Source: an uncultured virus (IMG/VR IMGVR_UViG_3300025418_001062)
Lineage: Duplodnaviria; Heunggongvirae; Uroviricota; Caudoviricetes
Reading direction: 5' to 3' (one strand)
DNA: 64,000 bases
IMG/VR virus record: IMGVR_UViG_3300025418_001062
Part shown: piece by piece, positions 1 through 64,000 of the stretch
How the letters are laid out: each line of letters starts with the position of its first letter
How positions within the stretch are numbered: position 1 is the stretch's first letter
Made by a program: the position numbers and the translations under genes
The notes under the pieces: generated by a model
Database searches by the model: none
The model's input: the letters and a program-made list of their open reading frames with translations, nothing else
What the model was told of the DNA's origin: nothing

Positions 1-103
1 GGTCAGCCTGGTCAGCCTGGGGCAACCTGGGGCAACCGGTCAGCCGGTCAGCCGGTCAGGGCTGACCGGCTGACCGGTCACGGGTCAGGGCTGACTAGTC
101 AGC
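1..103. repeat. Cluster of short GGTCAG(C/G)/GCTGAC repeats in both orientations
   Basis: About ten GTCAG/CTGAC cores in 103 bp plus tandem CCTGGGGCAA; read directly. Confidence 0.85.
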
Positions 104-729: not shown

Positions 730-918
730 GCACCTTGCATAATCCCTGATGAGAGGGTAAAAAAGACGCTAAAAAAAAGGCAAAAAAGGGCAAAAAAAGG
801 CTTGACAACAGGGCAAAAGTATGCATTGTGATACACAAAAGCGCGAGCGACCCGCTACACAGGGCGCAAATAGTAGTCAGGGTGTCACCACGCGCACAAT
901 TCCACTTTTTCTTCCAAA

Positions 919-932
919 CGAACAAATGTTCA
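919..932. promoter_or_regulatory. Gram-positive-type SOS (LexA) box
   Basis: CGAAC-AAAT-GTTCA; core GAACAAATGTTC identical to the box in the recA promoter. Confidence 0.55.
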
Positions 933-1078
933 GACACGCTTGAGCAGAGGGGCCTCAAAAACCCTGGGTCTTGGAAAATCGCTACAGACCACTAAGGGGG
1001 GTGGCAAATTTTTTTTCGGGGGGAAATCCTGGACTTCGAATGCTACAATTGAACACCAGGTTAAAAGGAGATGAACTA

Positions 1079-6230: not shown

Positions 6231-7762
6231 TGTCTGGTAACACTTTTGGAAAGTTTATTTCAGATTCGGTCAAGCCGCCTGAAATAGATGTATTTGGCAT
6301 TCTGGGATACGTCCCAACAGAACGCCAGCAAGTGTTTCACGCGGCTTCCGCCGAGCGAGTAGACGCCATTCTTTATGGTGGTGCTGCCGGTGGTGGTAAG
6401 ACAGCGGCGTTCTTGATGGACGCGCTCTACAATGCCGCAAATTTTCCTGGTATGAAGATTGGTTGTTTCCGTCGTTCATACCCAGAGTTAGAAGAATCGT
6501 TCTTGGCGCAGTTAGCCAAGTGGAACTACGGTCGTGACCTAGGTGCCAAGTGGAACTCAACCAACAAGGTTTTGAAGTTCGCTAACGGTTCTATCATTAA
6601 CTTTACATACGCTGAAAACTTGGTTGACGCATCCCGAATCCTCGGTGGTGAGTACCAAGCCTTTTACATTGACGAAGCCTCGCAAATGATGCCCGCTGTT
6701 ATTCAGCACATCGAAGAGCGTCTTCGTTCCGGTAGCCGACTTGTTCCGGTTATTGGTTTGCGCCTTGCTACCAACCCTGGTGGTATCGGCCACAAGTACC
6801 TTAAAGACCGATTCATTAATCCCACTAAGCGCGGGAAATTCCGGTACGAAGAAAAAGTGGGCGACGGCAAAAACACCCGTAGCGTTGCTTTTATTCAAGC
6901 AAAAGTTACGGACAACCCTCACGTCAACGAGGGCTACCACGCAGTTCTTGACTCCATTCCTGACCCACGGCGCCGCGCAGCGATGCGAGATGGTGACTGG
7001 GACGCAATGGTCGGTCAGTTTTTTGAGCAATGGCAATACTCCAAGCACGTTGTGCCATCTTTTGAAATTCCAAAAGAGTGGCCTCGTTACGCTGGTATTG
7101 ACTATGGCTTCAAGGACCCGTTCGCCGTTGTATGGGTTGCAATAGATAACGATGGTCGCATGTGGGTGTACCGAGAGATTTGCGTCTCTGGTTACAACTC
7201 CGACGAGCAGGCCAAACTTATTCTTGCTACCGAACAAGGCGCGGGTGAAACAGAAGTTATCAGAGTGGCCGACCCTTCAATGTGGGGAAGCCGCGGTACT
7301 CCTCTTTCTATTGCCGACGACTATGGCATTAACGGCTGTGGCATTATGCCCGCCAACAATGACCGTATCAACGGCTGGGCAAGAGTTCACCAGTACCTCA
7401 ACGACGCGCCAGCCTGTGAATATCACCGGGCAGAAGGCAAAGAGCGTTGCCCAATGCTTCATGTTTTTGAAGACAAATGCCCGATGTTTATTGAGCAAAT
7501 CCCAGCGTTGCCACGAAGCGCAGCCAAGCCGGACGACTCAGAAACACGAAACGTTGACGACCACATTCCTGACGCGTTGCGTTATGTTTGCATGTATGCC
7601 GGCGTTTATGCTCGACCCGTAATTTATAGCGACTTTTCTTCGTCATTCACAACGAGTGTTCCTGATACAATGGTTATTGTAAAAGAAGACGAAGCCCCTC
7701 CACTAAGGCAACCAAACTTTGGTGGTCTATTTGTTGGAGATTTTGGGCTTAGTCCCTTTTAA
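6230..7762 (+). CDS. terL: Terminase large subunit
   Basis: Walker A GGAAGGGKT, Walker B YIDEA, ATNPGG, nuclease GIDYG and DDHIPDALRY. Confidence 0.95.
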   Translation: MSGNTFGKFISDSVKPPEIDVFGILGYVPTERQQVFHAASAERVDAILYGGAAGGGKTAAFLMDALYNAANFPGMKIGCFRRSYPELEESFLAQLAKWNYGRDLGAKWNSTNKVLKFANGSIINFTYAENLVDASRILGGEYQAFYIDEASQMMPAVIQHIEERLRSGSRLVPVIGLRLATNPGGIGHKYLKDRFINPTKRGKFRYEEKVGDGKNTRSVAFIQAKVTDNPHVNEGYHAVLDSIPDPRRRAAMRDGDWDAMVGQFFEQWQYSKHVVPSFEIPKEWPRYAGIDYGFKDPFAVVWVAIDNDGRMWVYREICVSGYNSDEQAKLILATEQGAGETEVIRVADPSMWGSRGTPLSIADDYGINGCGIMPANNDRINGWARVHQYLNDAPACEYHRAEGKERCPMLHVFEDKCPMFIEQIPALPRSAAKPDDSETRNVDDHIPDALRYVCMYAGVYARPVIYSDFSSSFTTSVPDTMVIVKEDEAPPLRQPNFGGLFVGDFGLSPF

Positions 7763-7776
7763 AGAAAGATAACCAC

Positions 7777-9321
7777 ATGGCTATTACATCATTTAAGAGG
7801 GGACTTGAGGAGGCCGCGAGCGCCTTTGAAGAGATTCTAGAGGCACGCCCTAAGAGTTCTCCAAAGCGAGCAGGCTACGCCACTGGTGTTCCTATTGGCG
7901 GCTCAACCGAGGTTAACCCCGGCGAAAACGTAACCGCTGGAACCCTTGACCGCGCCACGTTTATGCAGCAATTGCTTCAAGCGTACTTGGCCTGCCCATG
8001 GTCGTCTGCTTCCGTAGACACCATTGCGCGCACCGCTACCGCTGGTGGCCTCGAGGTTGCTTACGAAGGCGGCATGACCGGCCCGACCAAGACGCCAGAC
8101 GCGCCAGAAGACGTTAAAAAGGTCCAGCAACTTCTCAAGTATGTCAACCCACAAGACGACATTCGACAGTTGATGCGTCAGATTATTACTGACCTTATGA
8201 TTTTTGGTGACTCGTTCACCGAAGTTGTTTGGGTTATGGGCGAGCCAGTTGCGCTGTACCCGCTTGACCCAACAACAATGACTGTTCTTGCTAACGAGCA
8301 TGGCGTTGTCAATGGCTACTACCAAAAAACCGCCACAAACCGTGAAGCAAAGTTTAAGCCCAACGAAGTTATTCACGTTAAGTTTGACTCCCCCGGCTCA
8401 ACCTTGTACGGTGTATCGCCAACGCAAAAGAACATTCTTCCAATTACTTCGTGGTTGTTTACTGCTGCACTTGTCAAAGAGACAATGAAGCGCGGTGACC
8501 CTCTGCGTGCGCACGTTGACTGGCCCATTGCCCTGCCTGAAGCAGAGATGCGCAAACTACAGCAACAATACGCAATTCGTAACTTGGGTGCTAGAAACAT
8601 TGGTAACTTGTTTGAAACCAAGGGTGGCGCGGTCGTCACCGAAATGGGCTCAAACCAAATTAACAACTGGCTCAACACCCTTCAGCAACGCCGTGACGAG
8701 ATTCTTTCTGGCTACGGTGTTCCGCCTTCAAAAGTCGGCGTTATTGAAGCCGGTAACCTTGGTGGTGGAACGGGAACCCAGCAGGACAAGACGTTCCGCG
8801 TCAACACTGTTGGTCCAATTCAGGAACTAGTTCTTGAAAAGTTTTCGTTTGCGCTTCTTTATCAGGCTTACGGCATTACCGACTGGGTTATCAAGTTCGG
8901 TGTAGTCGACTGGCGAGACGACGAAGTTATTGAACTTATTCGTGACCAGCGTATCCGTAACGGTACTTGGACTCTTAACAAGGCTCGCTCAGACATTGGC
9001 GAACCTCCTGTTAAGGGTGGCGATGACGCGGTTCTTATTGACCGTCAGAACATGGTTCTTTGGGCTGACCTTAGCGACCTGTCTGCTGCAAACCTTGCAG
9101 TGGTTCAGTCGCAGGGCGGCACCATGAACATGCCTCAGTTGCCAAACACAAATCCCGGTGCCCCCGACGGCGCCGGAGCAAAAACGCCAAAGTCTGCGGT
9201 AAGCCCCTCGTCAAAAAAGACTAAGCAGGCGGCAACCCCGATGGGCGCACCAAAAACTCCCAAGGGTTCAGAAACGGCCTTTGCCAAATTCCTAAGGGAA
9301 GACGACAGTGACGACGAATAA
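7777..9321 (+). CDS. Portal protein
   Basis: Follows terL; GDSF, LYPLDP, YGVSP, YGVPPSKVG, TLNKAR..IGEPP..GGD motifs. Confidence 0.93.
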   Translation: MAITSFKRGLEEAASAFEEILEARPKSSPKRAGYATGVPIGGSTEVNPGENVTAGTLDRATFMQQLLQAYLACPWSSASVDTIARTATAGGLEVAYEGGMTGPTKTPDAPEDVKKVQQLLKYVNPQDDIRQLMRQIITDLMIFGDSFTEVVWVMGEPVALYPLDPTTMTVLANEHGVVNGYYQKTATNREAKFKPNEVIHVKFDSPGSTLYGVSPTQKNILPITSWLFTAALVKETMKRGDPLRAHVDWPIALPEAEMRKLQQQYAIRNLGARNIGNLFETKGGAVVTEMGSNQINNWLNTLQQRRDEILSGYGVPPSKVGVIEAGNLGGGTGTQQDKTFRVNTVGPIQELVLEKFSFALLYQAYGITDWVIKFGVVDWRDDEVIELIRDQRIRNGTWTLNKARSDIGEPPVKGGDDAVLIDRQNMVLWADLSDLSAANLAVVQSQGGTMNMPQLPNTNPGAPDGAGAKTPKSAVSPSSKKTKQAATPMGAPKTPKGSETAFAKFLREDDSDDE

Positions 9322-9439
9322 TCAGACTCCCATTGAGTTAGATGGCAAACCTTTTTACAACGAAGGCGAGCCTGTTGTTCCTTTCCTCGGCCTTACAGCC
9401 GCTCGAGCAGCAGCATTGGTTCCAAAAGAAGTAGGATAA
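9308..9439 (+). CDS. Small hypothetical protein (43 aa)
   Basis: GTG start after AAGGGA; fills the gap; translated by hand. Confidence 0.4.
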   Translation: MTTNNQTPIELDGKPFYNEGEPVVPFLGLTAARAAALVPKEVG

Positions 9440-9440
9440 T

Positions 9441-9953
9441 ATGGGCCAGTACCCATCGCCAAAGGTTTATCACGCTGGCTACATGGGACAGGCAGGTGCG
9501 TTCGCAACGCACTATCGTTATCCGGCTGGGAGCCAAACGTACGCGCAGTTAACGGCAGAGCGTAACAACCTAATTAAAGCCCGTGCGGCCAAAGGTTATT
9601 ACCACAAAACCAGTGCGGCCAAATCAATGGCACGCAATCACGAGAGTGCTACTTTCCGAGGCAATCTTGCCCGTAATCACGTTTATGGCGAGTATTACTT
9701 GGCTAGCATTAAGCAACACGCAGTTGGTGTTCGTTGGATGGCTTTTCACCAAAAAGCCAAAATCAAAAAACCAAGCATCAACGGTAAGTTTAGAAAATTT
9801 AAGGGCGATATTGCCCCTGGGCGCTACATGCAAAGAACTGCTTGGGGGACCGCAAGGAAACCTTCGTTTAAAAGCAATCTTACAAAGCGTTCAAAAAGAT
9901 TTCACCACATTCACAAATGGCGTGGACACGGGAACAAGTTTGTACCGCTGTAA
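9441..9953 (+). CDS. Highly basic protein in the head module
   Basis: K/R/H-rich, very few acidic residues; between portal and protease. Confidence 0.7.
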   Translation: MGQYPSPKVYHAGYMGQAGAFATHYRYPAGSQTYAQLTAERNNLIKARAAKGYYHKTSAAKSMARNHESATFRGNLARNHVYGEYYLASIKQHAVGVRWMAFHQKAKIKKPSINGKFRKFKGDIAPGRYMQRTAWGTARKPSFKSNLTKRSKRFHHIHKWRGHGNKFVPL

Positions 9954-28040: not shown

Positions 28041-30709
28041 TGAGCGGTTACATTGACATTCCCATCGTAACAGAGGCTGACGTACTTGTTCAGCAATCTC
28101 TTGCCTCAATTGCTGCCAACGTTCCCGGCTGGGTGCCGCGTGAAGGCAACCTTGAAGTTCTTCTTCTGGAACAGTTTGCCTCAATGGCCGCAGAGGCCGC
28201 TAACGTGGCTTCTGACGTCCCCAAATCTATCTTTCAATATTTCGGTTCACTTATCGGAATTACACCAAATGCGGGCCTTCAAAACCAACTTTACACAACA
28301 TGGACATTGGTTAGCAACGCCCCTACCGGTGGATACCAAATTGCCGCCGGAACCGTTGTCGGCCTCTTCTTTTCCGGCGCTTCTTACCAGTTTCAACTTG
28401 TAAATAGCATTACAATTGCAGCGGGGACAAACGCGCTTACCAACGTTCTTGTTGAAGCAGTAACCCCAGGCACCGCTTACAACATTCAGAACTTTTCAAG
28501 TTTTAACTCCGTTGGCGCATTCTTGCAACTGCAAACTCAAAACCCCAACATCTCTAGCGTTGTGGTTACGGCAACCCCTGCAACAAACTCAAACCTTGTA
28601 GCGGGCACTGACCCAGAGACAACAGATTCATTCTTGAGCCGTTTGACGGCAGAATTGCAACTTCTTGCGCCCCGCCCAATTACGCCCAGCGACTACGCGT
28701 TGTTTGCTCAAAACGTATCCGGCATTTACCGTGCGCAGGCATTTGATGGCTTCAACTCTTTGACCAATCTTTTCTCTGCCGCTAACGCAAACTTTACAAC
28801 AGCATCGACTTCTGGTTCCGCCCCCTCTGGCTGGGGTGTTGTTGGTGACGGAACAACAACTGTTCCATCTATATCGACCCCCGGAACTTCGCCGTCAAAC
28901 TACTTGCAATTTACAAGTACGTCAACCGCGCTTCCAAGCGGGCTTGCAGTAAACACCGCAACAACGGCAGGTGCGTCTTCAATAAAGTTGACGACAACCG
29001 CTTTGCACACAACTGCAAGTTCTTCAGCGCCAGACCTTTTCTTGATTTCCGACAGCACAAACGGCAATGAAATTGTAATTGCAACAGCCGTTTCAGCCGC
29101 TTCCGGTGGTGCGCAAACATTGACGCTGGCCGCCCCAATGCAGTACGCTCACTCAACAAGCGCAACCGCAACCTTGCTTCAAGGTGCGTCGGCACCTGCC
29201 GCTACGGGTCTGTACGCAAACTCTTATTGGTACCAAGCCGCCGCCGTCATCAAGGCTGCTGGTTCCGCGCCGGCAACAACGGCAACAGAGCGCCCGTACA
29301 TTGTGGCTCTTGCCACTTACATTGACGGTTCGACGCGCGCGTTTTCTTCATTGCCACAGTTTGACGATTCCCTTTACACCTACACGTCAAACTCAAAAGT
29401 TGTTTGCTGCAACATTCCCTCAACAAACGCAAACTCTGCAAACGTGCTTGCTTTTGACCCCGGTGTGCCAACAATTTATTCGGCAACCAACCCTAACGCT
29501 CCACGTCCATACGTAACAAACATTCAAATGTACATTGCTTTTTCCACAACGGAAACAAGCAAGACGCACGAAGTTACTTACGTGTCGCTTAATGAGGTTC
29601 AGGTTGACCTTTCTTCCGCTCAAAGTCAAACGCTAACAAACAGTGACTACAACTTTATTCCTGACGCCACCTTCCTTGACTACGAATTCAGCGGTGGGTA
29701 CGGCTCGTCCTGGAGCAACCCAAATGGTACTGTCATATTGCCGGGAACGGGAGTTCAGTACCAGGGAACCGGCTCCGCACTCGGCTCCGCCCTTACGGTA
29801 AGTTCGCAAATCTTTAATTTGTCGCACGTCGTTTCTGACACCACGGCAACCACGCGCACGTACACGTTGTTTGCGACCGTTAACGCCAATTACGTGACCG
29901 GCACAACGTACAGCAACATTACGATTCAAGTTGTCAACGTTGCCACATCTGCCGTTCTTGCTACTGTTAGCCCTGCGGCTGCGGCCACGGTGACGCTTCC
30001 AATTACGTTTACGCTTTCATCTGCGGCTGACGTTCAGGTTAACATTATCTTTGGAGCCGGCCTCAACGTGCCATTGGGTTCGAGCGTTATTGTTTCAAAC
30101 GTTGCAGTTGTCTCTGGCTCGTACACATTGACAACGCTTCCGGCGCTCAACCAGTACAACTACACATGGACGCCAGGTGGACTCTACAACCCCAACACGT
30201 TTAACTACCCTCGCACCGTTTCTGTTGTGCCCGTTGATGCAAATGGTTTGCCGGTTGTTCCTTCAATCGCCCAAAGCCTCTCTGCCTACCTTGCAACCCG
30301 TCGCGAGACAAACTTTACGGTTAACACGATTAACCCCAATTACATTCCAATTGACGTTCAGTACACTATTTACGTTTCGCCGGCTTACACAACAACGTCA
30401 GTGCAGTCTTCGGTTACCGCCGCTATTCGTTTGTTCCTAAGCCCCGCTAACTGGGCTGGTGGAACAAACACGCCGCCATATTGGAATGGAGCCGCAACGT
30501 CGGTAAACATTATGGACCTTGCCACAATCATTGGTTCTGTTGAAGGCGTATCAAACGTTGTTACCGTAAGCGCCAGAACTTCATACCCAACCGGCGGAGC
30601 CTACTTGACCACAACGGTCCCGCTTTCCGGAATCGCTCCTCTTCCAATTGCTAACGCAATTGCCGGAACGGTTTATGCCAATACAAGCAACACGTTTACT
30701 GGACTTTAA
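28040..30709 (+). CDS. Baseplate J-like protein with large insertion
   Basis: GTDPETTDSFLSR, PITPSDY, VEGVSNV motifs; 889 aa. Confidence 0.85.
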   Translation: MSGYIDIPIVTEADVLVQQSLASIAANVPGWVPREGNLEVLLLEQFASMAAEAANVASDVPKSIFQYFGSLIGITPNAGLQNQLYTTWTLVSNAPTGGYQIAAGTVVGLFFSGASYQFQLVNSITIAAGTNALTNVLVEAVTPGTAYNIQNFSSFNSVGAFLQLQTQNPNISSVVVTATPATNSNLVAGTDPETTDSFLSRLTAELQLLAPRPITPSDYALFAQNVSGIYRAQAFDGFNSLTNLFSAANANFTTASTSGSAPSGWGVVGDGTTTVPSISTPGTSPSNYLQFTSTSTALPSGLAVNTATTAGASSIKLTTTALHTTASSSAPDLFLISDSTNGNEIVIATAVSAASGGAQTLTLAAPMQYAHSTSATATLLQGASAPAATGLYANSYWYQAAAVIKAAGSAPATTATERPYIVALATYIDGSTRAFSSLPQFDDSLYTYTSNSKVVCCNIPSTNANSANVLAFDPGVPTIYSATNPNAPRPYVTNIQMYIAFSTTETSKTHEVTYVSLNEVQVDLSSAQSQTLTNSDYNFIPDATFLDYEFSGGYGSSWSNPNGTVILPGTGVQYQGTGSALGSALTVSSQIFNLSHVVSDTTATTRTYTLFATVNANYVTGTTYSNITIQVVNVATSAVLATVSPAAAATVTLPITFTLSSAADVQVNIIFGAGLNVPLGSSVIVSNVAVVSGSYTLTTLPALNQYNYTWTPGGLYNPNTFNYPRTVSVVPVDANGLPVVPSIAQSLSAYLATRRETNFTVNTINPNYIPIDVQYTIYVSPAYTTTSVQSSVTAAIRLFLSPANWAGGTNTPPYWNGAATSVNIMDLATIIGSVEGVSNVVTVSARTSYPTGGAYLTTTVPLSGIAPLPIANAIAGTVYANTSNTFTGL

Positions 30710-30711
30710 TT

Positions 30712-31980
30712 ATGACGGTAACCTTACCGAATAGTTACAACACCCAGTCGATTTATAACACGGTGCCGCAATTTATCCAAGACCAAGACGCGCAAAATGG
30801 TTACGCTCTTTGGTACTTTATTTACGGCGCCGCGTCGCAACTTGACCAACTTGACATTCTGACTAGAAACAATGTCGGTCAAGGCATTCACGTTGAAGCA
30901 AACTTTGGTGCTTATGCAACGTACGAAATCACAGACGTTCAAATTGCAAACCCTCTTGCACCCGGCGACACAACAATTACAATTTTTGGAACAGACAGCA
31001 CTTGGTATGTGTTCCCAACAAATCAACCAATTCTTTTAGAGTTGGTCAATTCGCTTACTGGCGCCGTTGAAACAATTTCGGTCCCCGCCGGATACAGTGA
31101 TTGGAACGCGCCAACAATCACCTTTACGGGTGTTACGCGCAACTATCCTACGGGCGGCGCCGGCCTATCCTGGCCCGCAAGCACAGGAGCAGACGGAAGC
31201 GTTTACCTTCAGGACTGGGCCGGCGCTCCCGGCTGGTCTCAAGCGGTTGACATTCAACGTTGCCCAAACTACGCCCTGCCTTGGCTTGCTCAATTTGTAG
31301 GCGCTTCAATCCCATCTGACACAACCATGAGCCGTCAGCAGATTGTCCAAACGATTAACTCCCTTGGTGGTTTTAATCGGGCAACCGCCGAAGCAATTAC
31401 GCAACAGTTGATTCAGGTAATTAACTCCCAGTTGGTTTCAAGCGTTTCTCAGTTGTCTGAGTCGCAAGTAATCATCATGGAAAACACGCAATCAACCTCG
31501 TACGCAATTACGGGCGCTTCTGCAAACGGCACAACAGTAACTTACACGTGTGCCAACTCTCTTATTGCGGGTCAAGTTGTAACCATCTCGGGATTGTCTA
31601 CAACAGCGTTTAACCTTACAAACGTTACGGTGGCGTCGGCAACTGCAACGCAATTTACGGTCACAAATTCAGCAACGGGAACAACAGTTACAAGCCAACA
31701 AGGCGCTTGTGCGCTCAAAGAGCCGTATTCAAACAGTTTTAATGCAATGACAATCTTGCTTCCATCTATTTATTTTTCGTCACAGTCGTATCAGACTTTG
31801 ACGGCTGATGCCGGTGGCGCTTCTTCAACGTACTCGTCACTTCAAACGTATCTTACAAGCATTGGTGGTCTTTACTTTGACCTTCAGGGCAGCACCGTTG
31901 CAAGTAACAACTCACCGTACATCAACTTTATCTATCGTTACCGGCCTGCCGGAATGCAAATCTTCGTAGGAGGATACTAA
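30712..31980 (+). CDS. Baseplate wedge / P2 gpI-like tail protein
   Basis: LPWLAQFVG and terminal RPAG motif. Confidence 0.75.
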
Positions 31981-46795: not shown

Positions 46796-47830
46796 TTATT
46801 TAGAATTAATCCGAAGAGTGCGTGCACCGGGACGAACCTTTTTGAACCGTTCCCAGATTTCGGGTGCTTCCTTCTTGATTCGGTCTGCGTCAAGGCTTTC
46901 AACTTCCTTGCCGGCCTTGTAGGTAAGCAGCACGGTCCCGTTGTACTTGGCTGATTCGGCATCGCCTACCAATTCAACAATCTGTGCGCGCAGAGCCTTG
47001 CGCTTAGCGTCGGCGGCATCTGCTTCTTCCTTAGCGGCCTCAAACTCGGCAATCAAAGCGAGAAGGTCTACCTCTGCTTCAACAAACTTGCCTTCTTCGT
47101 GGCGAGGATAACGCTGACGTTGTGCGGCTTCGGTCGCCTCGCTACCGTCTGTAGGTGGCGCGGTCTTTGTTACGACCTGCTCCCAAAACTCCGCCTCGGC
47201 AATAATAAGGTTGTCGGCAATGTTCTGGTTCCATTCCATCTCACGAACCTGCAAGCCCTGACCACCAATAAGCGCCGCAAACGTAATCTTTGGCACTTCA
47301 TGGAAACCAGCCACGATACCGTAGTGGTACCCCTGCAACATGTAACTCTCGGGAATGTTGTTGTACGCCCATGCACCGGGATTACCGGGGCTAGCAATAC
47401 CAGCGGTCTTGACTTCAAGAATGCCTTCAACGTTGGGCGGGGGCGTAGCAAAGCGCCACGTCTGAACTGTGCCGGCAGGGAATTCCTCGCTGGGCTCCAC
47501 AATCAAGAAGTCAAGGTTGGCAAACATGAACTCACGCCCCTCTTCGAGCGAACGAAGAATGACGGGCCACTCAACTACAGCCTTGTTGTGCTTACGTGCA
47601 TAGTGAGCCGCAATAGGACGCTCGAGGTCGTGACCCCAATCAGTCGCATCGTTACCACTAAATTCAGTGGGCATGATGCCGGTCTTCTCGCCCCACAATG
47701 CGTAGGCTGACTTGTACTTGTTTACGCCGACAATAGTGCCTGCGTCTGAGCCACCGATTCCGCCCTTGCGAGCCTCGAGCCACTCATCATTGCTCATATC
47801 CCATACGGGGATTACTTCTACTTTGTTCAC
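46796..47830 (-). CDS. YqaJ-like (lambda-exonuclease family) nuclease
   Basis: WLEARK.GIGGSD, WGHDLE, ANLD, LEVKT. Confidence 0.92.
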   Translation of the reverse strand: MNKVEVIPVWDMSNDEWLEARKGGIGGSDAGTIVGVNKYKSAYALWGEKTGIMPTEFSGNDATDWGHDLERPIAAHYARKHNKAVVEWPVILRSLEEGREFMFANLDFLIVEPSEEFPAGTVQTWRFATPPPNVEGILEVKTAGIASPGNPGAWAYNNIPESYMLQGYHYGIVAGFHEVPKITFAALIGGQGLQVREMEWNQNIADNLIIAEAEFWEQVVTKTAPPTDGSEATEAAQRQRYPRHEEGKFVEAEVDLLALIAEFEAAKEEADAADAKRKALRAQIVELVGDAESAKYNGTVLLTYKAGKEVESLDADRIKKEAPEIWERFKKVRPGARTLRINSK

Positions 47831-48051
47831 TCTGTTCCTTTCAGTTTGATGGACCTTGCCACCTTTTCGTTTAATTCAATTACATTTGTTTCTTTTAATT
47901 CCTTGCACACGTTGAACACGGTGCCAAGAGAAATGCCCGTAATGCGGGAAATGTCTCGGTAACTCGGTCCGTACGTATGTCCAATATACCACATCTTGAT
48001 TGCTTCCGCAACTCGAACTTGATTGTTTTTTTGTGCGTTCTTCTCACTCAT
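47827..48051 (-). CDS. Stand-alone LexA-like DNA-binding domain
   Basis: GPSYRDI...G.S..TV....L.....I......RSIKL; no peptidase domain. Confidence 0.75.
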   Translation of the reverse strand: MSEKNAQKNNQVRVAEAIKMWYIGHTYGPSYRDISRITGISLGTVFNVCKELKETNVIELNEKVARSIKLKGTE

Positions 48052-49087: not shown

Positions 49088-49109
49088 AGTGTATCAGAAC
49101 AAATGTTCT
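49088..49109 (-). promoter_or_regulatory. recA promoter -10 with abutting SOS box
   Basis: AGAAC-AAAT-GTTCT (49096-49109) next to TGaTACACT. Confidence 0.75.
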
Positions 49110-49122
49110 AGGAGGTGGACGC

Positions 49123-55795: not shown

Positions 55796-56209
55796 ATGAA
55801 AATTACAGCACCATTTCAACGGAGTTCTAAGACCAGCCGAGAGGCCGCAGAATCTGTTGAACACTTGGTTGAAACCCAACTGGAAAAAGTTTACTCGCTC
55901 ATTAGCGAAAAGCCACGCACCGACCAAGAAGTAGCCAAGGTTCTTGGTATGCAGATTTCTTCCATTACCGCTCGACGCCGAGCATTGGTTCTTGAGGGAC
56001 GAGTTCGAGACTCTCAACTGCGTCGCAAGAACTCATCGGGTCGCAATGCTGTAATCTGGGAGGCCGGCGAAGCAGCAGAGCCAAGTCGCCCATCTCGGAG
56101 CGAACTGGAACGCCGAATTGAAAAGGCTATTATGCACATCGAGACCGCCGGCTACCAAGAAGTAGGCAATTTCCGTGCTAATCTGCAAAACATCTTGAAG
56201 GGAATCTAG
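55796..56209 (+). CDS. Winged-helix DNA-binding protein
   Basis: TSREAA..T.QEVA..L...S.TARR..L...G.V...R...SGR.A.IW; TTGACA-N17-TATCTT promoter at 55724. Confidence 0.75.
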   Translation: MKITAPFQRSSKTSREAAESVEHLVETQLEKVYSLISEKPRTDQEVAKVLGMQISSITARRRALVLEGRVRDSQLRRKNSSGRNAVIWEAGEAAEPSRPSRSELERRIEKAIMHIETAGYQEVGNFRANLQNILKGI

Positions 56210-59885: not shown

Positions 59886-59927
59886 ATCGTACCAATATTT
59901 GACATGAATGTCAATTTATGATATACT
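59886..59927. promoter_or_regulatory. Overlapping divergent promoter pair
   Basis: + TTGACA(59899)-N17-TATACT; - TTGACA(59914)-N17-TACGAT; both with TGn. Confidence 0.75.
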
Positions 59928-59990: not shown

Positions 59991-60161
59991 TAATTTTTCC
60001 CCATATTTAGGTCAAAAACTGCCAGTGGCCACACAGAATAAATTTTCCCCACATTTTTTTGAAAAACTGCCAGGTCCCAGACATTTTTCTAAAGAACCGG
60101 CCCTTCGCGTATACGCGATATATATACGCGATTCGCGTACGCGATACGTATACACACGCGA
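59991..60161. repeat. CGCG block A with two TTTTCCCCA..AAAAACTG motifs
   Basis: Six CGCG in 55 bp; homologous to blocks B and C. Confidence 0.9.
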
Positions 60162-60183
60162 GGCTTTGATTTGAGACATTTTG

Positions 60184-60294
60184 GGGCACTGGCTAGGCAG
60201 TCTATCCGGTTTGGATAATACGGGCACTACAGGGCAATACAGGGGCACTACAGGGGATTTTGGATAGACTACCTAGCCGAGACTAGGGCACTAC
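60184..60294. repeat. 17-bp inverted repeat enclosing GGGCA(C/A)TAC direct repeats
   Basis: 60191-60207 vs 60262-60278, one mismatch. Confidence 0.8.
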
Positions 60295-60350
60295 TTAGAA
60301 GTATTCGTCACACAGGTCACAAACACCTACAAACTCTGAGCCGTCGCTCA

Positions 60351-60548
60351 TCATTCTGACTCCTCCACGAAGTAGTCATCGTACCAGCCATCAACCCATT
60401 CGGGGCTGTCTTCGTCTGGTTCGGGCTTTGCGACGTAGATAAAGTCCCACGCTTCCTCAAAACTGTTGAACGATAGGTTCGGGTCATTGCTCCCGAACTC
60501 TGTCCACAGTCGGTTGCCCGCCCAGTCTTTGATAATCCACTTACTCAT
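60351..60548 (-). CDS. Small acidic early protein
   Basis: GGAGG RBS; coupled. Confidence 0.7.
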   Translation of the reverse strand: MSKWIIKDWAGNRLWTEFGSNDPNLSFNSFEEAWDFIYVAKPEPDEDSPEWVDGWYDDYFVEESE

Positions 60549-60772
60549 CAGTAGCCTCCTTCTTCGTTTAGTTTGCGGATGTAATGCAGTAGCGCCGAAT
60601 AAAGGTTGGCGTCGTATTCCCTAAATCCCTGGTCAGGGATACGAAGATACTCTTGTAGGTCTTCATCCCAGATACAGCCGTCAGGAAACTGTGCTTCCAA
60701 GACGTCGGTGTCGCAAAAGAACCCACGGTCTTTGTGGTAGCCCACCACAAAATAGTGCGTGTAGGTACTCAT
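60548..60772 (-). CDS. Small early protein
   Basis: Coupled ORF. Confidence 0.7.
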   Translation of the reverse strand: MSTYTHYFVVGYHKDRGFFCDTDVLEAQFPDGCIWDEDLQEYLRIPDQGFREYDANLYSALLHYIRKLNEEGGY

Positions 60773-60939
60773 TACAGCACCTCGACGTGGAAGTCATTGG
60801 GGTTTGCGCCCGTCTGGTCGTTGAAAAGCCCGTCAGCGTACATCAGCGCCTCATCAGCGTTTTCAGCGATAACGCTTACGGTGTAGGTGTAAGAGACCTC
60901 CATGTATGGCGTCCCGTCGGTGTCATAGTTTACAGTCAT
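60772..60939 (-). CDS. Small acidic early protein (55 aa)
   Basis: GGAGGAG RBS; TAATG overlaps; translated by hand. Confidence 0.65.
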   Translation of the reverse strand: MTVNYDTDGTPYMEVSYTYTVSVIAENADEALMYADGLFNDQTGANPNDFHVEVL

Positions 60940-61157
60940 TATTGTTCTCCTCCGTAGGTGTAGTCGGTGTCAATAGCCCAGTTGTAGGGGTTGAAACCGT
61001 ATTCTTGAAAAATCTTTCGTGATGCAAGTTCCAGCAGAACGTCTTCAATGTCCGCTTCCAGCCGGTCGTCGTCGGGCGTTCTGTCGTAGTAGACAACAGT
61101 GTTTAGAACCATGTGGTCGCAAGTAATGCTTACGAAGTAAACGTGGTGCTCTCCCAT
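60939..61157 (-). CDS. Small acidic early protein
   Basis: AGAAAGGA RBS after promoter cassette. Confidence 0.75.
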   Translation of the reverse strand: MGEHHVYFVSITCDHMVLNTVVYYDRTPDDDRLEADIEDVLLELASRKIFQEYGFNPYNWAIDTDYTYGGEQ

Positions 61158-61180
61158 TTTGTATCCTTTCTGTCTGTCAC

Positions 61181-61231
61181 CACCGCTTTTCGGTGATGAA
61201 CCATTGTACCACGGGTTTTTTGCTTTGTCAA
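61181..61231 (-). promoter_or_regulatory. Early promoter-hairpin cassette 1
   Basis: TTGACA-N17-TACAAT then CACCG-AAAAG-CGGTG. Confidence 0.85.
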
Positions 61232-61234
61232 GTC

Positions 61235-61714
61235 CTAGTGGTGAAAATCTACCAAGACTAAGAATTGACGAGTGGGGTCTGTTTCCATGCGCTCACGGAG
61301 ATACTTGAAGTCTTCGCACCATTCTTTCAGGTCGTAGAAGTAGGCATCGTGCTTTCCGTTGCCCTCGGCAATGGCAATAGCCTGACGGAGATGGTAAAAA
61401 TCAAGACTGCGTCCGGCATCACGGCCATCAAAGTTGCGCACTTCTTCAATGATTGCCTCGGTGTCAATGTTGCTCAACAGAAACTTGATTTCATTCACTC
61501 GGTTGAGACGGGCACGCTCCAAAAAGTCCTCAAACTTTGTGGGGTCGTCTGCGTAGCAGTGAACCTCGCCCTCGTCCTCCCAGCGCCCCCCGATTTCTGC
61601 CCAGTCGCTCCACGGAAAAACGGGGTTGTCATCGTGCGTCAAAGCAATGTCTACTTGAGAGATTGCGTCTTCGGCGTTGTCAGCCTCTACTGCGATAAAA
61701 TGTAATACGTGCAT
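61235..61714 (-). CDS. Acidic early protein
   Basis: AAAGGAG RBS; DW.EIGGRW...LVDFHH motif. Confidence 0.8.
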   Translation of the reverse strand: MHVLHFIAVEADNAEDAISQVDIALTHDDNPVFPWSDWAEIGGRWEDEGEVHCYADDPTKFEDFLERARLNRVNEIKFLLSNIDTEAIIEEVRNFDGRDAGRSLDFYHLRQAIAIAEGNGKHDAYFYDLKEWCEDFKYLRERMETDPTRQFLVLVDFHH

Positions 61715-61731
61715 TATGCTCCTTTGTCTCT

Positions 61732-61785
61732 GCACCGGCTTTTCCGGTACTCATCTATTATAACAGGGGTTTTTTACTTTGTCAA
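61732..61785 (-). promoter_or_regulatory. Early promoter-hairpin cassette 2
   Basis: TTGACA-N17-TATAAT then GTACCGG-AAAAG-CCGGTGC. Confidence 0.88.
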
Positions 61786-62263
61786 GTCAGTGGTCAAAGA
61801 AATCGAAAACTTTGTCCGTGACTGCTACGTTCCACTGTAGCATCTCTACTAGCAAAGAATACAGCAGTTCGTTGGCTTCCGTCTCCTCGCCGTGAAACTT
61901 GCGCTCGGCGTATAGGATAAGGGCGCTCGACGCCTCGGTTGCGCTCCTCACTCTAAGCCCTCCCAGTCGTCGCTCGTCGCCCGTAGGTAAAACTCGGCGG
62001 GGTCTTCATCAAAAAGGTGCAGTTGCGCCTCGCTAAAATCCTCGGTGTCGAAGATAAAGAGGTCGTAATCCTCGGCGCTACCATAGTTGCCGTCAAAGCC
62101 TACATACATTTTTGCCATTATTCGCTCTCCTTTAGAACGCCGTCAATGAATGAATAGTTGGTGTAAATGATGACCTGACCCTCGTTGTCAAGGTCAATGT
62201 CGCAATTCGGGAGTGCTTTCTGCACCGCCTCTACTAACTGCTCAATAGTGGTGTAGTTGGTCA

Positions 62264-62470
62264 TTAGTTCTCCTCCACGTCAATGCTGTATACTGATGCA
62301 AAACCCTTGTAGTCTTCGTAGCGCCAGCCCTCGGCTTCCGCTTCCGCTTCGCCGTCGGCATCTACGTCAAACCGGTACTCAACCATTACCGTCACGCTGT
62401 ACGACGTAGGGCTGTCATCTTCAGTATCCTGAACCTCGGTGCTTACAACTTTCTTAGTGGCTGTCGCCAT
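62264..62470 (-). CDS. Small acidic early protein; followed by three further coupled small ORFs down to ~61786
   Basis: GAAAGGA RBS; MATATKK... Confidence 0.7.
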   Translation of the reverse strand: MATATKKVVSTEVQDTEDDSPTSYSVTVMVEYRFDVDADGEAEAEAEGWRYEDYKGFASVYSIDVEEN

Positions 62471-62491
62471 TGGTAATCCTTTCGGTAAATT

Positions 62492-62545
62492 GCCGAGACG
62501 TTTTCTCGACCCAAACAGTATGACACACGCCGACGTCAATGTCAA
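62492..62545 (-). promoter_or_regulatory. Early promoter-hairpin cassette (variant)
   Basis: TTGACA-N17-CATACT then GTCGAGA-AAACG-TCTCGGC. Confidence 0.75.
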
Positions 62546-62548
62546 ATC

Positions 62549-62640
62549 ATTTTCCCCATTTTTTTTTGAAAAACTCTTCGCGTACGCGATTCGCGTACAT
62601 GCCCACGCGATACGCGATTTCGCGTATGCGCACACGCGAT
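62549..62640. repeat. CGCG block B
   Basis: TTTTCCCCA..GAAAAACT then seven CGCG in 60 bp. Confidence 0.9.
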
Positions 62641-62649
62641 AGGGGGAGA

Positions 62650-62672
62650 TTGCCCCCAAACTTCGGGGGCAA
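62650..62672 (-). terminator. Hairpin after ORF 62677-62949
   Basis: TTGCCCCC-N7-GGGGGCAA. Confidence 0.6.
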
Positions 62673-62676
62673 CCTC

Positions 62677-62949
62677 CTAGTCCAATTCTTCCAACTCTTC
62701 GTCCTCGACCACAGTTTCCTCGCTCCACGGCTTGACTGTGATGTAGTAGCCCATTCTGTTCACAATGTGGTAGCCGTTCACAATGGTTCCGTCGTCCAGT
62801 TCCGTCCACACCATCTCGACGGGCTGACCCTGAACAAACTCCAGTTCCTCGCCGTAGGTCTCGAACATCTTGACAAAGTAGTATGCCCTAGATTGGAAAT
62901 GATTATCTAGGGGCTGATACTGGTTCCACCAATCCTCGAACTTCATCAT
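62677..62949 (-). CDS. Acidic early protein
   Basis: FETYGEE..VWT..G.HIVNR.GY.IT. Confidence 0.75.
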   Translation of the reverse strand: MMKFEDWWNQYQPLDNHFQSRAYYFVKMFETYGEELEFVQGQPVEMVWTELDDGTIVNGYHIVNRMGYYITVKPWSEETVVEDEELEELD

Positions 62950-63332
62950 ACCGCTACCACGGGGAGAAAGTCAAGGACAAACTCGTGAAACGACTTAGGC
63001 TCATAGACGGGTCGCCAGTGACTGTCCGCAAAGTCTTCGCTGTAGACACGCTCATAGATAGAAACTTCTTCCTTTACGTGGTCTACTTCTACCAAGCGCC
63101 AAGCGTCGCCAGCCTCACGGGTACTGATGCCGTAAGAAAGGTTGCTCTCGTCGCCTCCGAGGAGCGTCTGAAAGATGATACGATTGAGGTAGTCCTCATC
63201 GCCCCACCGGTCACGCCCCTTGTCCAGCCCCTGCGCCACAATTTCGGGCAGTCGGTAAGCAGTCCAATGAGTGTAAAAGTAAATCGGCTGTCCGTATTCA
63301 CTAACTAACTTGATGTTTCCACGGTCTCCCAC
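62946..63332 (-). CDS. Early protein (MGDRGNI...YTHW...RW.D..YL.R)
   Basis: GTG start after GAAGGGA. Confidence 0.75.
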   Translation of the reverse strand: MGDRGNIKLVSEYGQPIYFYTHWTAYRLPEIVAQGLDKGRDRWGDEDYLNRIIFQTLLGGDESNLSYGISTREAGDAWRLVEVDHVKEEVSIYERVYSEDFADSHWRPVYEPKSFHEFVLDFLPVVAV

Positions 63333-63352
63333 GGTAATCCCTTCTGATAAAA

Positions 63353-63406
63353 GCACCGGCTTTTCCGGTACTCAACCATTGTATCAGGGGTTTGTGTCCT
63401 TGTCAA
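63353..63406 (-). promoter_or_regulatory. Early promoter-hairpin cassette 3
   Basis: TTGACA-N17-TACAAT; hairpin identical to cassette 2. Confidence 0.88.
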
Positions 63407-63674
63407 GCCAAGTCCAACCTTTTTCTTCAAGGTCTTCTCGGAACTCCTGCGCCGCCTCTGGTGTGGTGAACGCTGTGGCCTTAGTTAGTGCAACTGCGTC
63501 TGGGCGAATACCCTTGTCACGCTGTAGCAGTCGCATAACCTGCGACTTCGGATTAGGCTTCTCTACGGCTTCCTGCAACTCTGTCCAAGTCACCTCGTCA
63601 CTGCGCACAAGCAAAAGCCCGTCAGCGATGCCTATAAGCCCGTCTGCCGTCACGAAATACAAGTTCTGTGTCAT
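63384..63674 (-). CDS. Hypothetical early protein
   Basis: GGAAGG RBS; CATACT -10 upstream. Confidence 0.7.
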   Translation of the reverse strand: MTQNLYFVTADGLIGIADGLLLVRSDEVTWTELQEAVEKPNPKSQVMRLLQRDKGIRPDAVALTKATAFTTPEAAQEFREDLEEKGWTWLDKDTNP

Positions 63675-63733
63675 CTGATACCTTCCCATAAATAACCCGT
63701 CTGAGGGGCTTACAGTATGACACGTAATTATTC

Positions 63734-63762
63734 TTGACTTTCACTCACGCATACGCTATAAT
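63734..63762 (+). promoter_or_regulatory. Plus-strand promoter facing CGCG block C
   Basis: TTGACT-N17-TATAAT with no credible ORF downstream. Confidence 0.7.
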
Positions 63763-63773
63763 TAGTCGTGCGA

Positions 63774-63894
63774 TAATTTTTCCCCATCTTTTTCTCAAAA
63801 ACTGGCTACTTTCGCCCGTAGTTTCTTTAGAAATCCTCTCGCGTACGCGATTCGCGTACCCGCGCCTACGCGATTCGCGTATACACGCACGCGA
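63774..63894. repeat. CGCG block C
   Basis: TTTTTCCCCA..AAAAACTG then seven CGCG in 54 bp. Confidence 0.9.
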
Positions 63895-63939
63895 AAAAAA
63901 TGGCGGAGCCGGAGCGAACACACGTTCGCCCCGACCCCC
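63894..63939 (-). terminator. Intrinsic terminator whose apex is a perfect SOS-box-like sequence
   Basis: Long GC stem + T7 on the minus strand; CGAAC-ACAC-GTTCG at 63915-63928. Confidence 0.7.
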
Positions 63940-64000
63940 TGCCACTACTCGGCTTCCACCGTCTCCGTCTCTGCGCCGGTGATGAAGTTCGTAGCCTTCT

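Follow-up and report, generated by a model that had tools for sequence, protein, structure and literature searches.

Spacer-confined arrays of a TCGCGT/ACGCGA half-site, putative operators, in the early-looking arm of an uncultured tailed virus genome

The 64,000-nucleotide stretch analyzed here (the window) is the left part of a 75,722-base (75.7 kb) record of an uncultured virus of the class Caudoviricetes (IMG/VR IMGVR_UViG_3300025418_001062; hereafter G000), and our subject is a series of CGCG-rich blocks of alternating purines and pyrimidines located in the intergenic spacers at its right side. A profile scan of 105 proteins revealed two WhiB genes, RecA, portal, terminase, and a baseplate-wedge gene, and recognized neither a DNA methylase nor a Z-alpha domain among them; Pfam and PHROG scans recognized neither a repressor nor an integrase in the phage proteins. 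The capsid protein has 70 related loci in viral contigs and zero matches among 50,697 annotated phage records; its only matches in genomes are 50%-identical capsids in Saccharothrix and Amycolatopsis, which place the host no lower than phylum. The host is probably actinobacterial. The 24 listed runs containing the stretch are all freshwater metagenomes.

The blocks lie in what we call the arm, a region of approximately 16 kb which extends from 59.9 kb, beyond the window, to the record end at 75722. The arm consists of successive minus-strand cassettes, each of which combines a sigma70-type promoter with TG, close to consensus, with a hairpin and one to a few small genes; 19 minus-strand promoters are listed between 61.2 and 75.0 kb. 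The genes include an ArdC-type anti-restriction gene (63945–64835) and ArdA (67716–68030). AGCT and GATC do not occur in the entire genome, and TTAA is absent from the arm versus 202 copies in the rest of the genome. Because the arm is devoid of TTAA and the genome of AGCT and GATC, the arm may represent early or first-entering DNA. Seven plus-strand consensus promoters fire backwards into blocks of the arm, those at blocks 1 and 3 (see below) among them.

The preliminary description of the window had singled out three blocks between early terminators and promoters, and all three are present: block 1 (60105–60161) with 6 TCGCGT/ACGCGA half-sites and a 17-bp alternating tract, block 2 (62578–62639) with 7 half-sites and two 20-bp units of 8-bp interior, and block 3 (63839–63894) with 6 half-sites, two ACGCGA-T-TCGCGT joints, and an 18-bp alternating tract. 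The 6 to 7 CGCG reported per block were counted as 6, 7, and 7, the alternating end tracts of 17 to 18 bp were measured as 17, 18, and 18 bp, and the shared palindromic unit, TACGCGATTCGCGTA, was found at 60125, 62583, 63844, and 63867 (8 strand matches with at most 1 mismatch versus 0 in 100 shuffles). Also present is the reported TTTTCCCCA-T-tract-AAAAACT motif, with two copies at block 1 (59991–60068), kept in the relative G005 and presumably UP-element-like, one between the −35 hexamer and block 2 (62550–62575), and one preceding block 3 (63774–63803).

The minus-strand order gene, hairpin, block, A-tract, promoter was recovered only in part. At block 2, the hairpin is G+C-rich (62641–62680, minus strand), lies at the stop of the open reading frame (ORF) 62677–62949, and is terminator-like by eye, albeit absent from the terminator scan; the promoter, TTGACA-17-CATACT with TG (62517–62545, minus strand), has its nearest CGCG 33 nt upstream of the −35. 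The promoter of block 1, TTGACA-17-TACGAT with TG (59886–59914, minus strand), is of the sigma70 type, faces convergent plus-strand genes, and has no downstream gene of its own, and the hairpin, an inverted repeat of 17 bp with a 54-nt loop (60191–60278) located 3′ of the last minus-strand arm gene and kept in G005, lacks a U-tract. Furthermore, blocks 1 and 3 additionally carry a plus-strand promoter firing into the block, TTGACA-17-TATACT at 59899–59927 and TTGACT-17-TATAAT at 63734–63762, respectively; both hexamers of the latter are identical in the diverged relative L293, in which 5 of the 17 spacer bases differ. Block 3 adjoins the intrinsic terminator of the ArdC-type gene (63895–63938, minus strand), the stem top of which (63915–63928) reads CGAAC-N4-GTTCG, a LexA-box-like palindrome; the 3′ end of the gene itself occupies the end of the window (63945–64000, minus strand). 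Small arm ORFs between blocks 1 and 2 (60351–62470, minus strand) have no assigned function, and their promoters at 61231 and 61785 have no upstream block. A conserved promoter with a leader hairpin is repeated before arm genes (61178–61235, 61732–61789, and 63353–63410), also where there is no CGCG block.

The three blocks are not the complete set; they are the first of 26 clusters, with a total of 123 TCGCGT/ACGCGA sites, which continue from 59.9 kb to the record end. Cluster span grows in this direction (rho 0.56), the terminal array of approximately 600 bp (75056–75664) being the densest. A check of CGCG density and alternation along the genome showed that long alternating tracts are concentrated in the arm, with 24 tracts of at least 17 bp versus a single one in the remaining 59.9 kb. 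The unit is TCGCGT-spacer-ACGCGA, often fused to the next as ACGCGA-T-TCGCGT, and most intergenic spacers contain 3 to 8 sites in both orientations, as inverted pairs. Among 47 TCGCG-N-CGCGA units, the spacer is even in 45, with peaks at 10 (14 units) and 22 (13 units), and there are 17 single-base joints of the form CGCGA-N-TCGCG. A set of 87 distinct units from G000 and close relatives includes 76 even spacers, with peaks again at 10 (22 units) and 22 (17 units); L348, which has no similarity to the genome, contributes to the 47-unit count and is left out of the 87-unit and Z-energy counts, and the unit of G005 is represented in the 87-unit set by the identical unit of L333. Unit length increases with position (rho 0.72). 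A TCGCGTA half is paired with a TCGCGTG half in 31 of 38 units (A/G on the left, T/C on the right); therefore, perfect hairpins are not favored. The proposition that the blocks are small structured RNAs transcribed from the backward promoters is scarcely credible: seven such promoters do point into blocks and the transcript of block 3 folds with a z of −4.6, yet most blocks lack such a promoter, the folding follows from the palindromes while the interiors stay unpaired, and Rfam yielded no match in 56–64 kb.

The half-site is strictly confined. ACGCGA/TCGCGT occurs 123 times in the arm spacers, 0 times in the 8,919 bp of arm ORFs, and 0 times in the other 59.9 kb, where 6.0 (Markov order 4) or 12.2 (order 3) occurrences are expected. 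In G005, the only fetched relative with the same motif, the hexamer is found 0 times outside the block versus 3.3 expected, and in six relatives in which it is not the arm motif, its frequency outside the arms is normal (observed/expected: 19/18.7, 15/15.9, 8/7.3, 5/5.7, 4/6.0, and 8/7.3). The sixth base is nearly fixed, T following TCGCG in 123 of the 128 arm cases of G000, and C doing so in 102 of 123 and 109 of 134 cases in the relatives G001 and G004, respectively; either base is compatible with Z-DNA. In 14 variant loci aligned to the arm, substitutions affect 8 of 646 half-site positions (0.012 per site), 53 of 547 interior positions (0.097), 390 of 4787 positions of other spacer DNA (0.081), and 574 of 5927 ORF positions (0.097), so that half-sites change approximately 8 times more slowly than the spacer interiors (Fisher p 1.5e-11).

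A motif search in related phages revealed that the same slots can hold another palindrome at fixed promoter positions. The complete relatives G001 and G004 carry ATCGCGC-NN-GCGCGAT instead, in approximately 25 copies each, and a compact form of it is found in G002. Its half GCGCGAT numbers 85, 99, and 9 copies inside the arms of G001, G004, and G002, respectively, and none outside, where 2.1, 2.1, and 0.7 are expected (4.9 for the three genomes summed, p about 0.007). The palindrome of G001 ends 14–16 nt before an extended −10 in 18 of 30 copies, the other copies being unmatched, and that of G004 ends 24–25 nt before an extended −10 in 11 of 24 copies; the two distances are about one helical turn apart. 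Closer to G000, the preliminary description had made its case depend on homologous blocks preserving both the units and the alternation; the G005 orthologue of block 1 retains the half-sites but not the tract, an A-run replacing an alternating run and the end tract being broken.

The corresponding slots of G006 and G007 are filled by GATC- and AGCT-rich, non-CGCG motifs, and such motifs bear on whether the arrays act as decoys that draw a host restriction or modification enzyme to places where cutting spares the cassettes. We give this idea very little credence. In the G007 arm, GATC and AGCT reach 11.3 and 8.9 per kb in spacers versus 0.3 and 0.5 in ORFs, with a similar, weaker pattern in G006, and ArdA and ArdC are encoded in the arm of G000. 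However, other restriction-like words are purged in G000 without distinction between spacers and genes (TTAA throughout the arm, AGCT and GATC throughout the genome), the scanned proteins include no recognized methylase, and CGCG occurs 149 times outside the arm, which fits poorly with the plain CGCG decoy of the preliminary description. Of the 16 palindromic 4-mers, 12 are missing from one arm gene of G007 and 13 from another (7715–9906), and the spacers of this phage are also loaded with GTTAC-N6-GTAAC.

Because the half-site is invariant, confined to spacers, absent elsewhere, and exchanged in relatives for another palindrome at fixed positions, the suggestion that the blocks are arrays of sites for a protein is the best supported of those put forward, although its activator and restriction-decoy variants fit poorly: an activator is unlikely in G000, where most promoters already match the host consensus. 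A protein thus probably reads the half-site. On balance, we consider it probable that the TCGCGT/ACGCGA arrays bind a putative, probably phage-made protein which would silence the early promoters and block read-through. Repression rather than activation is suggested because most promoters are near consensus and because a roadblock would explain the purging of single sites from transcribed DNA. The protein would be of phage origin, given that the motif switches among phages with overlapping avoidance of restriction words and that no multi-copy regulon was found in 301 sampled Actinomycetota genomes (one of them, G097, unpublished): ATCGCGC-NN-GCGCGAT, the form searched, as opposed to the TCGCGT form, which was not, is present in 18 of them in 1–2 copies and in none in more than 2, and 10 host-genome loci of the palindrome that were inspected share no common promoter context. 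Mechanistically, the putative protein would occupy the half-site arrays in the spacers and silence the promoters of the early cassettes, and a bound array would act as a roadblock halting read-through; as a lineage-specific second layer, Z-prone interiors may tune protein loading through supercoiling.

Several observations weigh against such an operator array. No binder was identified in Pfam and PHROG scans or by co-variation across relatives, and no protein clearly separates G001, G004, and G002 from G000 and G005. The nearest CGCG is not phased to the −35 in G000 (Rayleigh p 0.18, 16 promoters), spacer lengths range from 2 to 22, unlike in a rigid dimer site, and the terminal array runs approximately 600 bp past the last promoter. 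The −35 position of G001 lies within the palindrome, an arrangement as compatible with an activator as with a repressor. The loci used for the conservation analysis were partly retrieved by the half-site pattern, which favors a slow half-site, and gene conversion can likewise keep repeats constant. Finally, the expected counts behind the exclusion are small, G000 is related to G005, and avoidance is stronger still for 12 of 2,080 hexamers. Among the candidate binders, a 74-aa protein resembling the LexA DNA-binding domain (47827–48051, minus strand, behind recA) gains no support as the reader, its recognition helix being identical across motif types. A second candidate is a winged-helix-like protein (55796–56209, plus strand; fold read from sequence, weak AdcR match with E 0.1), the detection of which was limited to the two TCGCGT-type phages, G000 and G005; several small helix-turn-helix-like proteins are further candidates, and no cognate immunity repressor family was found in the Pfam or PHROG scans. 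The LexA-like protein is a stand-alone DNA-binding domain devoid of the protease part and is conserved in 5 relatives.

The exact TACGCGATTCGCGTA was also tried, and abandoned, as an array marker in viral contigs: only 3 of 73 loci (one near-identical contig) have arrays, the others being single copies in unrelated sequence. Unrelated prophages (L003, L006, L013, L044, and related loci) have a promoter with a single TACGCGATTCGCGTA between its −35 and −10, ahead of a small gene whose product starts MEFEWDEAKS and is presumably a BrnT-like toxin; this single copy is probably an unrelated operator.

The preliminary description had offered, as the other possibility, Z-DNA-prone supercoil sinks. 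With the per-dinucleotide Z energies of Table 1 of PMC3024258, the portion of that source used here, interiors average 1.57 versus 3.00 kcal/mol per step in shuffles, and they contain in-phase low-energy dinucleotides over at least 12 bp. Free interior steps comprise 167 CG, 137 CA/TG, 71 CC/GG, 36 TA, and 19 others (rho −0.80 with Z energy), and under a position-wise null, CC/GG is observed 71 versus 47 expected times and TC/GA 0 versus 18. In a rough single-run model, from which the ranking is taken, a first calculation at sigma −0.07 having been dropped as too permissive, the arm contributes 35 of the 40 highest-ranking Z-prone sites of G000, and the arms of G001 and G004 contribute 39 of 52 and 39 of 45 favorable sites, respectively. 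By this prediction, no DNA of the genome is more Z-prone than the alternating interiors, and the model places Z-prone spacers in three lineages. The scan therefore found the arm most Z-prone, whereas the three blocks originally named are among its weakest: blocks 2 and 3 rank 24, 27, and 32, and block 1, with the weakest score of the three, ranks 67 and is unfavorable. Z-DNA propensity stands as a description of spacer composition but not as a family-wide or sole function.

In its strongest form, this possibility would make the blocks protein-independent Z-DNA switches which absorb negative supercoiling behind strong, partly divergent early promoters, their T/A flanks serving as B–Z junctions. 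We regard it as distinctly unlikely. Apart from the energies and rankings above, the parity of the 76 of 87 even spacers speaks for it, and so does the distance of 12 bp between the spacer peaks at 10 and 22; 12 bp is one turn of Z-DNA. Moreover, the T and A flanks fit the preferred junction because, according to the part of PMC6212838 consulted, an A–T pair beside a Z dinucleotide is favored there. However, the fixed sixth base and the absence of the hexamer elsewhere are left unexplained, favorable sites number 0, 2, and 2 in the arms of G002 (900 bp examined), G006, and G007, and the G005 orthologue of block 1 keeps the half-sites next to a broken tract. Strict alternation is broken by 21 of 31 centers in G001 versus 2 of 25 in G004, and 11 of 87 spacers are odd. 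Nor are the units independent, since they share ancestry; dinucleotide slippage also keeps parity, and the transition excess of interiors relative to third codon positions is not significant (p 0.14). Across the arm genes, no trend in alternation was seen (0.44–0.58 per gene versus 0.50–0.54 in core genes). A tentative hybrid with the operator array, which we also consider rather unlikely, is a protein-anchored switch, in which a phage protein would clamp the TCGCGT/ACGCGA ends of 18- or 30-bp tracts flipping to Z. Supercoiling from the early and backward promoters would flip the tracts, so that the arm would sense its own transcription and time the shut-off of the anti-defense genes, the same spacers also collecting host LexA, DnaA, and ParB sites.

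Cassettes are gained and lost at these spacers. The cassette between the blocks at 65021 and 65599 is missing in variant L145, which has an extra stretch of approximately 550 bp elsewhere, and the same 564-bp skip occurs in contigs of 3 of 4 runs. Such exchange, together with the rise of unit length with position (rho 0.72), would be expected if the arrays were PeSL-like recombination homology without any reader, kept alike by gene conversion and expanded by slippage. Yet cassette exchange does not explain the hexamer exclusion, and the recombination account predicts neither the lack of the hexamer in the 69 kb of other DNA, nor the fixed promoter distances in G001 and G004, nor freely differing interiors beside constant half-sites, which makes it highly unlikely.

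Other palindromes and boxes occur in the arm and its surroundings; the labels DnaA-box-like, LexA-box-like, and parS-like denote resemblance to the respective consensus sequences. Four tandem DnaA-box-like 9-mers lie at the far end of the arm (75672–75713), near short G+C-rich tandem repeats (window 1–95), and relatives have tandem 9-mers of this kind at G001:30827–30870 (with G+C-rich repeats at approximately 30630–30820), G002:706–759, and G004:16829–16849. In arm slots, LexA-box-like palindromes number 5 in G000, 8 in G004, and 0 in G001, and parS-like 16-mers number 2 each in G001 and G004. GAAC-N4-GTTC, likewise LexA-box-like, occurs at window 918–933 and 49095–49110 and in relatives at G001:29578, G002:1681, 1716, and 61072, G004:18155 and 19108, G006:34239, and G007:19801 and 19866; it is located at the divergence point before plus-strand genes and, in G000 and G002, also between recA and the replication initiator. 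The LexA-, DnaA-, and parS-like sites hint at a carrier state or at control coupled to the SOS response; an integrase was not seen. A second palindrome, AGATA-N5-TATCT, has 11 exact copies in G000 (64931–73357), lies 11 or 21–22 nt above the −35 in 9 of the 19 promoters listed, and did not turn up in any arm of the fetched relatives. A WhiB phage unrelated to G000 (G013, the record behind L147; L146) has 33 DnaA boxes, the majority placed at a constant spacing just upstream of a repeated, non-canonical promoter-like motif, CAACT...CCGATA. The AGATA-N5-TATCT copies and these DnaA boxes, operator-like words in the same kind of slot, speak for the protein-site reading. At the opposite side of the record, a lone minus-strand gene (95–658) of biased word use and no family adjoins the record start; its Atlas matches were uninformative (best 0.78), and variant L287 connects a diverged version of it to the far end of the arm. 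PADLOC returned only weak, unrelated matches.

The gradient toward the record end could also reflect DNA entry or packaging, with a small terminase or a host nucleoid protein loading onto sites densest at the genome end, as in T5. Site density and unit length both rise to the record end, where G000, G001, G002, and G004 have the DnaA-box-like 9-mers, and the arm lacks TTAA (0 versus 202), as expected of first-entering DNA; the T5 injection-stop region, in the part of its description available (bioRxiv 10.1101/866236), likewise has repeats, palindromes, and 8 DnaA boxes. Nevertheless, a variant contig crosses the record end, which hence need not be the physical end, contig depth gave no position for terminal repeats, and the constant promoter distances of G001 and G004 speak for a role in transcription, so that we hold this explanation to be quite improbable.

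The preliminary description did not recognize the element as a described one, and our literature search, of partial coverage with most subscription papers and supplements outside it, likewise found no description of such an element. The element is real, and it is a variant of operator-bearing early cassettes. Like the PeSL cassettes of T4-type phages (PMC2839356 and PMC4122927, in the parts compared), it combines repeated intergenic units, a sigma70-like promoter, an AT-rich upstream region, a stem-loop, and small variable flanking genes, with cassettes gained and lost at the repeats, here as the 564-bp skip of L145 and 3 of 4 runs; a stem-loop terminator of the PeSL type within the unit is also predicted here (63905–63938 and other hairpins). 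By contrast, in those accounts, PeSLs have neither an invariant half-site array nor alternating tracts, and here the host is probably actinobacterial and the phage, with its WhiB genes, is not T4-type. Stoperators of cluster A mycobacteriophages, as far as the consulted part of PMC9283540 describes them, similarly repeat one site over 20 times, in promoter regions and in short gaps between genes, and have been proposed to stop initiation and elongation. They are 13-mers without symmetry that follow the direction of transcription and have a known immunity repressor as their binder, whereas the 6-bp half-sites described here occur in both orientations with variable spacers and without a recognized repressor or integrase. 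The injection-stop region of T5 shares non-coding repeats, palindromes, and tandem DnaA boxes beside early-looking genes but, in the same available part of bioRxiv 10.1101/866236, is one region in the terminal repeat, whereas our sites are distributed over more than 20 spacers and known from contigs only. Z-DNA elements of promoters, judging from the consulted portion of PMC3024258, share the in-phase CG, CA/TG, CC/GG, and TA steps, the A–T flanks, and the position upstream of strong promoters; here, the steps are bracketed by an invariant, genome-excluded hexamer and are missing from the homologous slots of some relatives. What sets the element apart is the genome-wide exclusion of the half-site, the switch of motif between relatives, and the predicted Z-prone spacers in three lineages. 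The family thus constitutes a natural experiment: one palindrome is swapped for another, either of them being excluded elsewhere in the genomes that use it, and some lineages have neither. If the spacers truly flip, the family would be a rare example of a bacterial virus group in which Z-DNA has been selected for its function.

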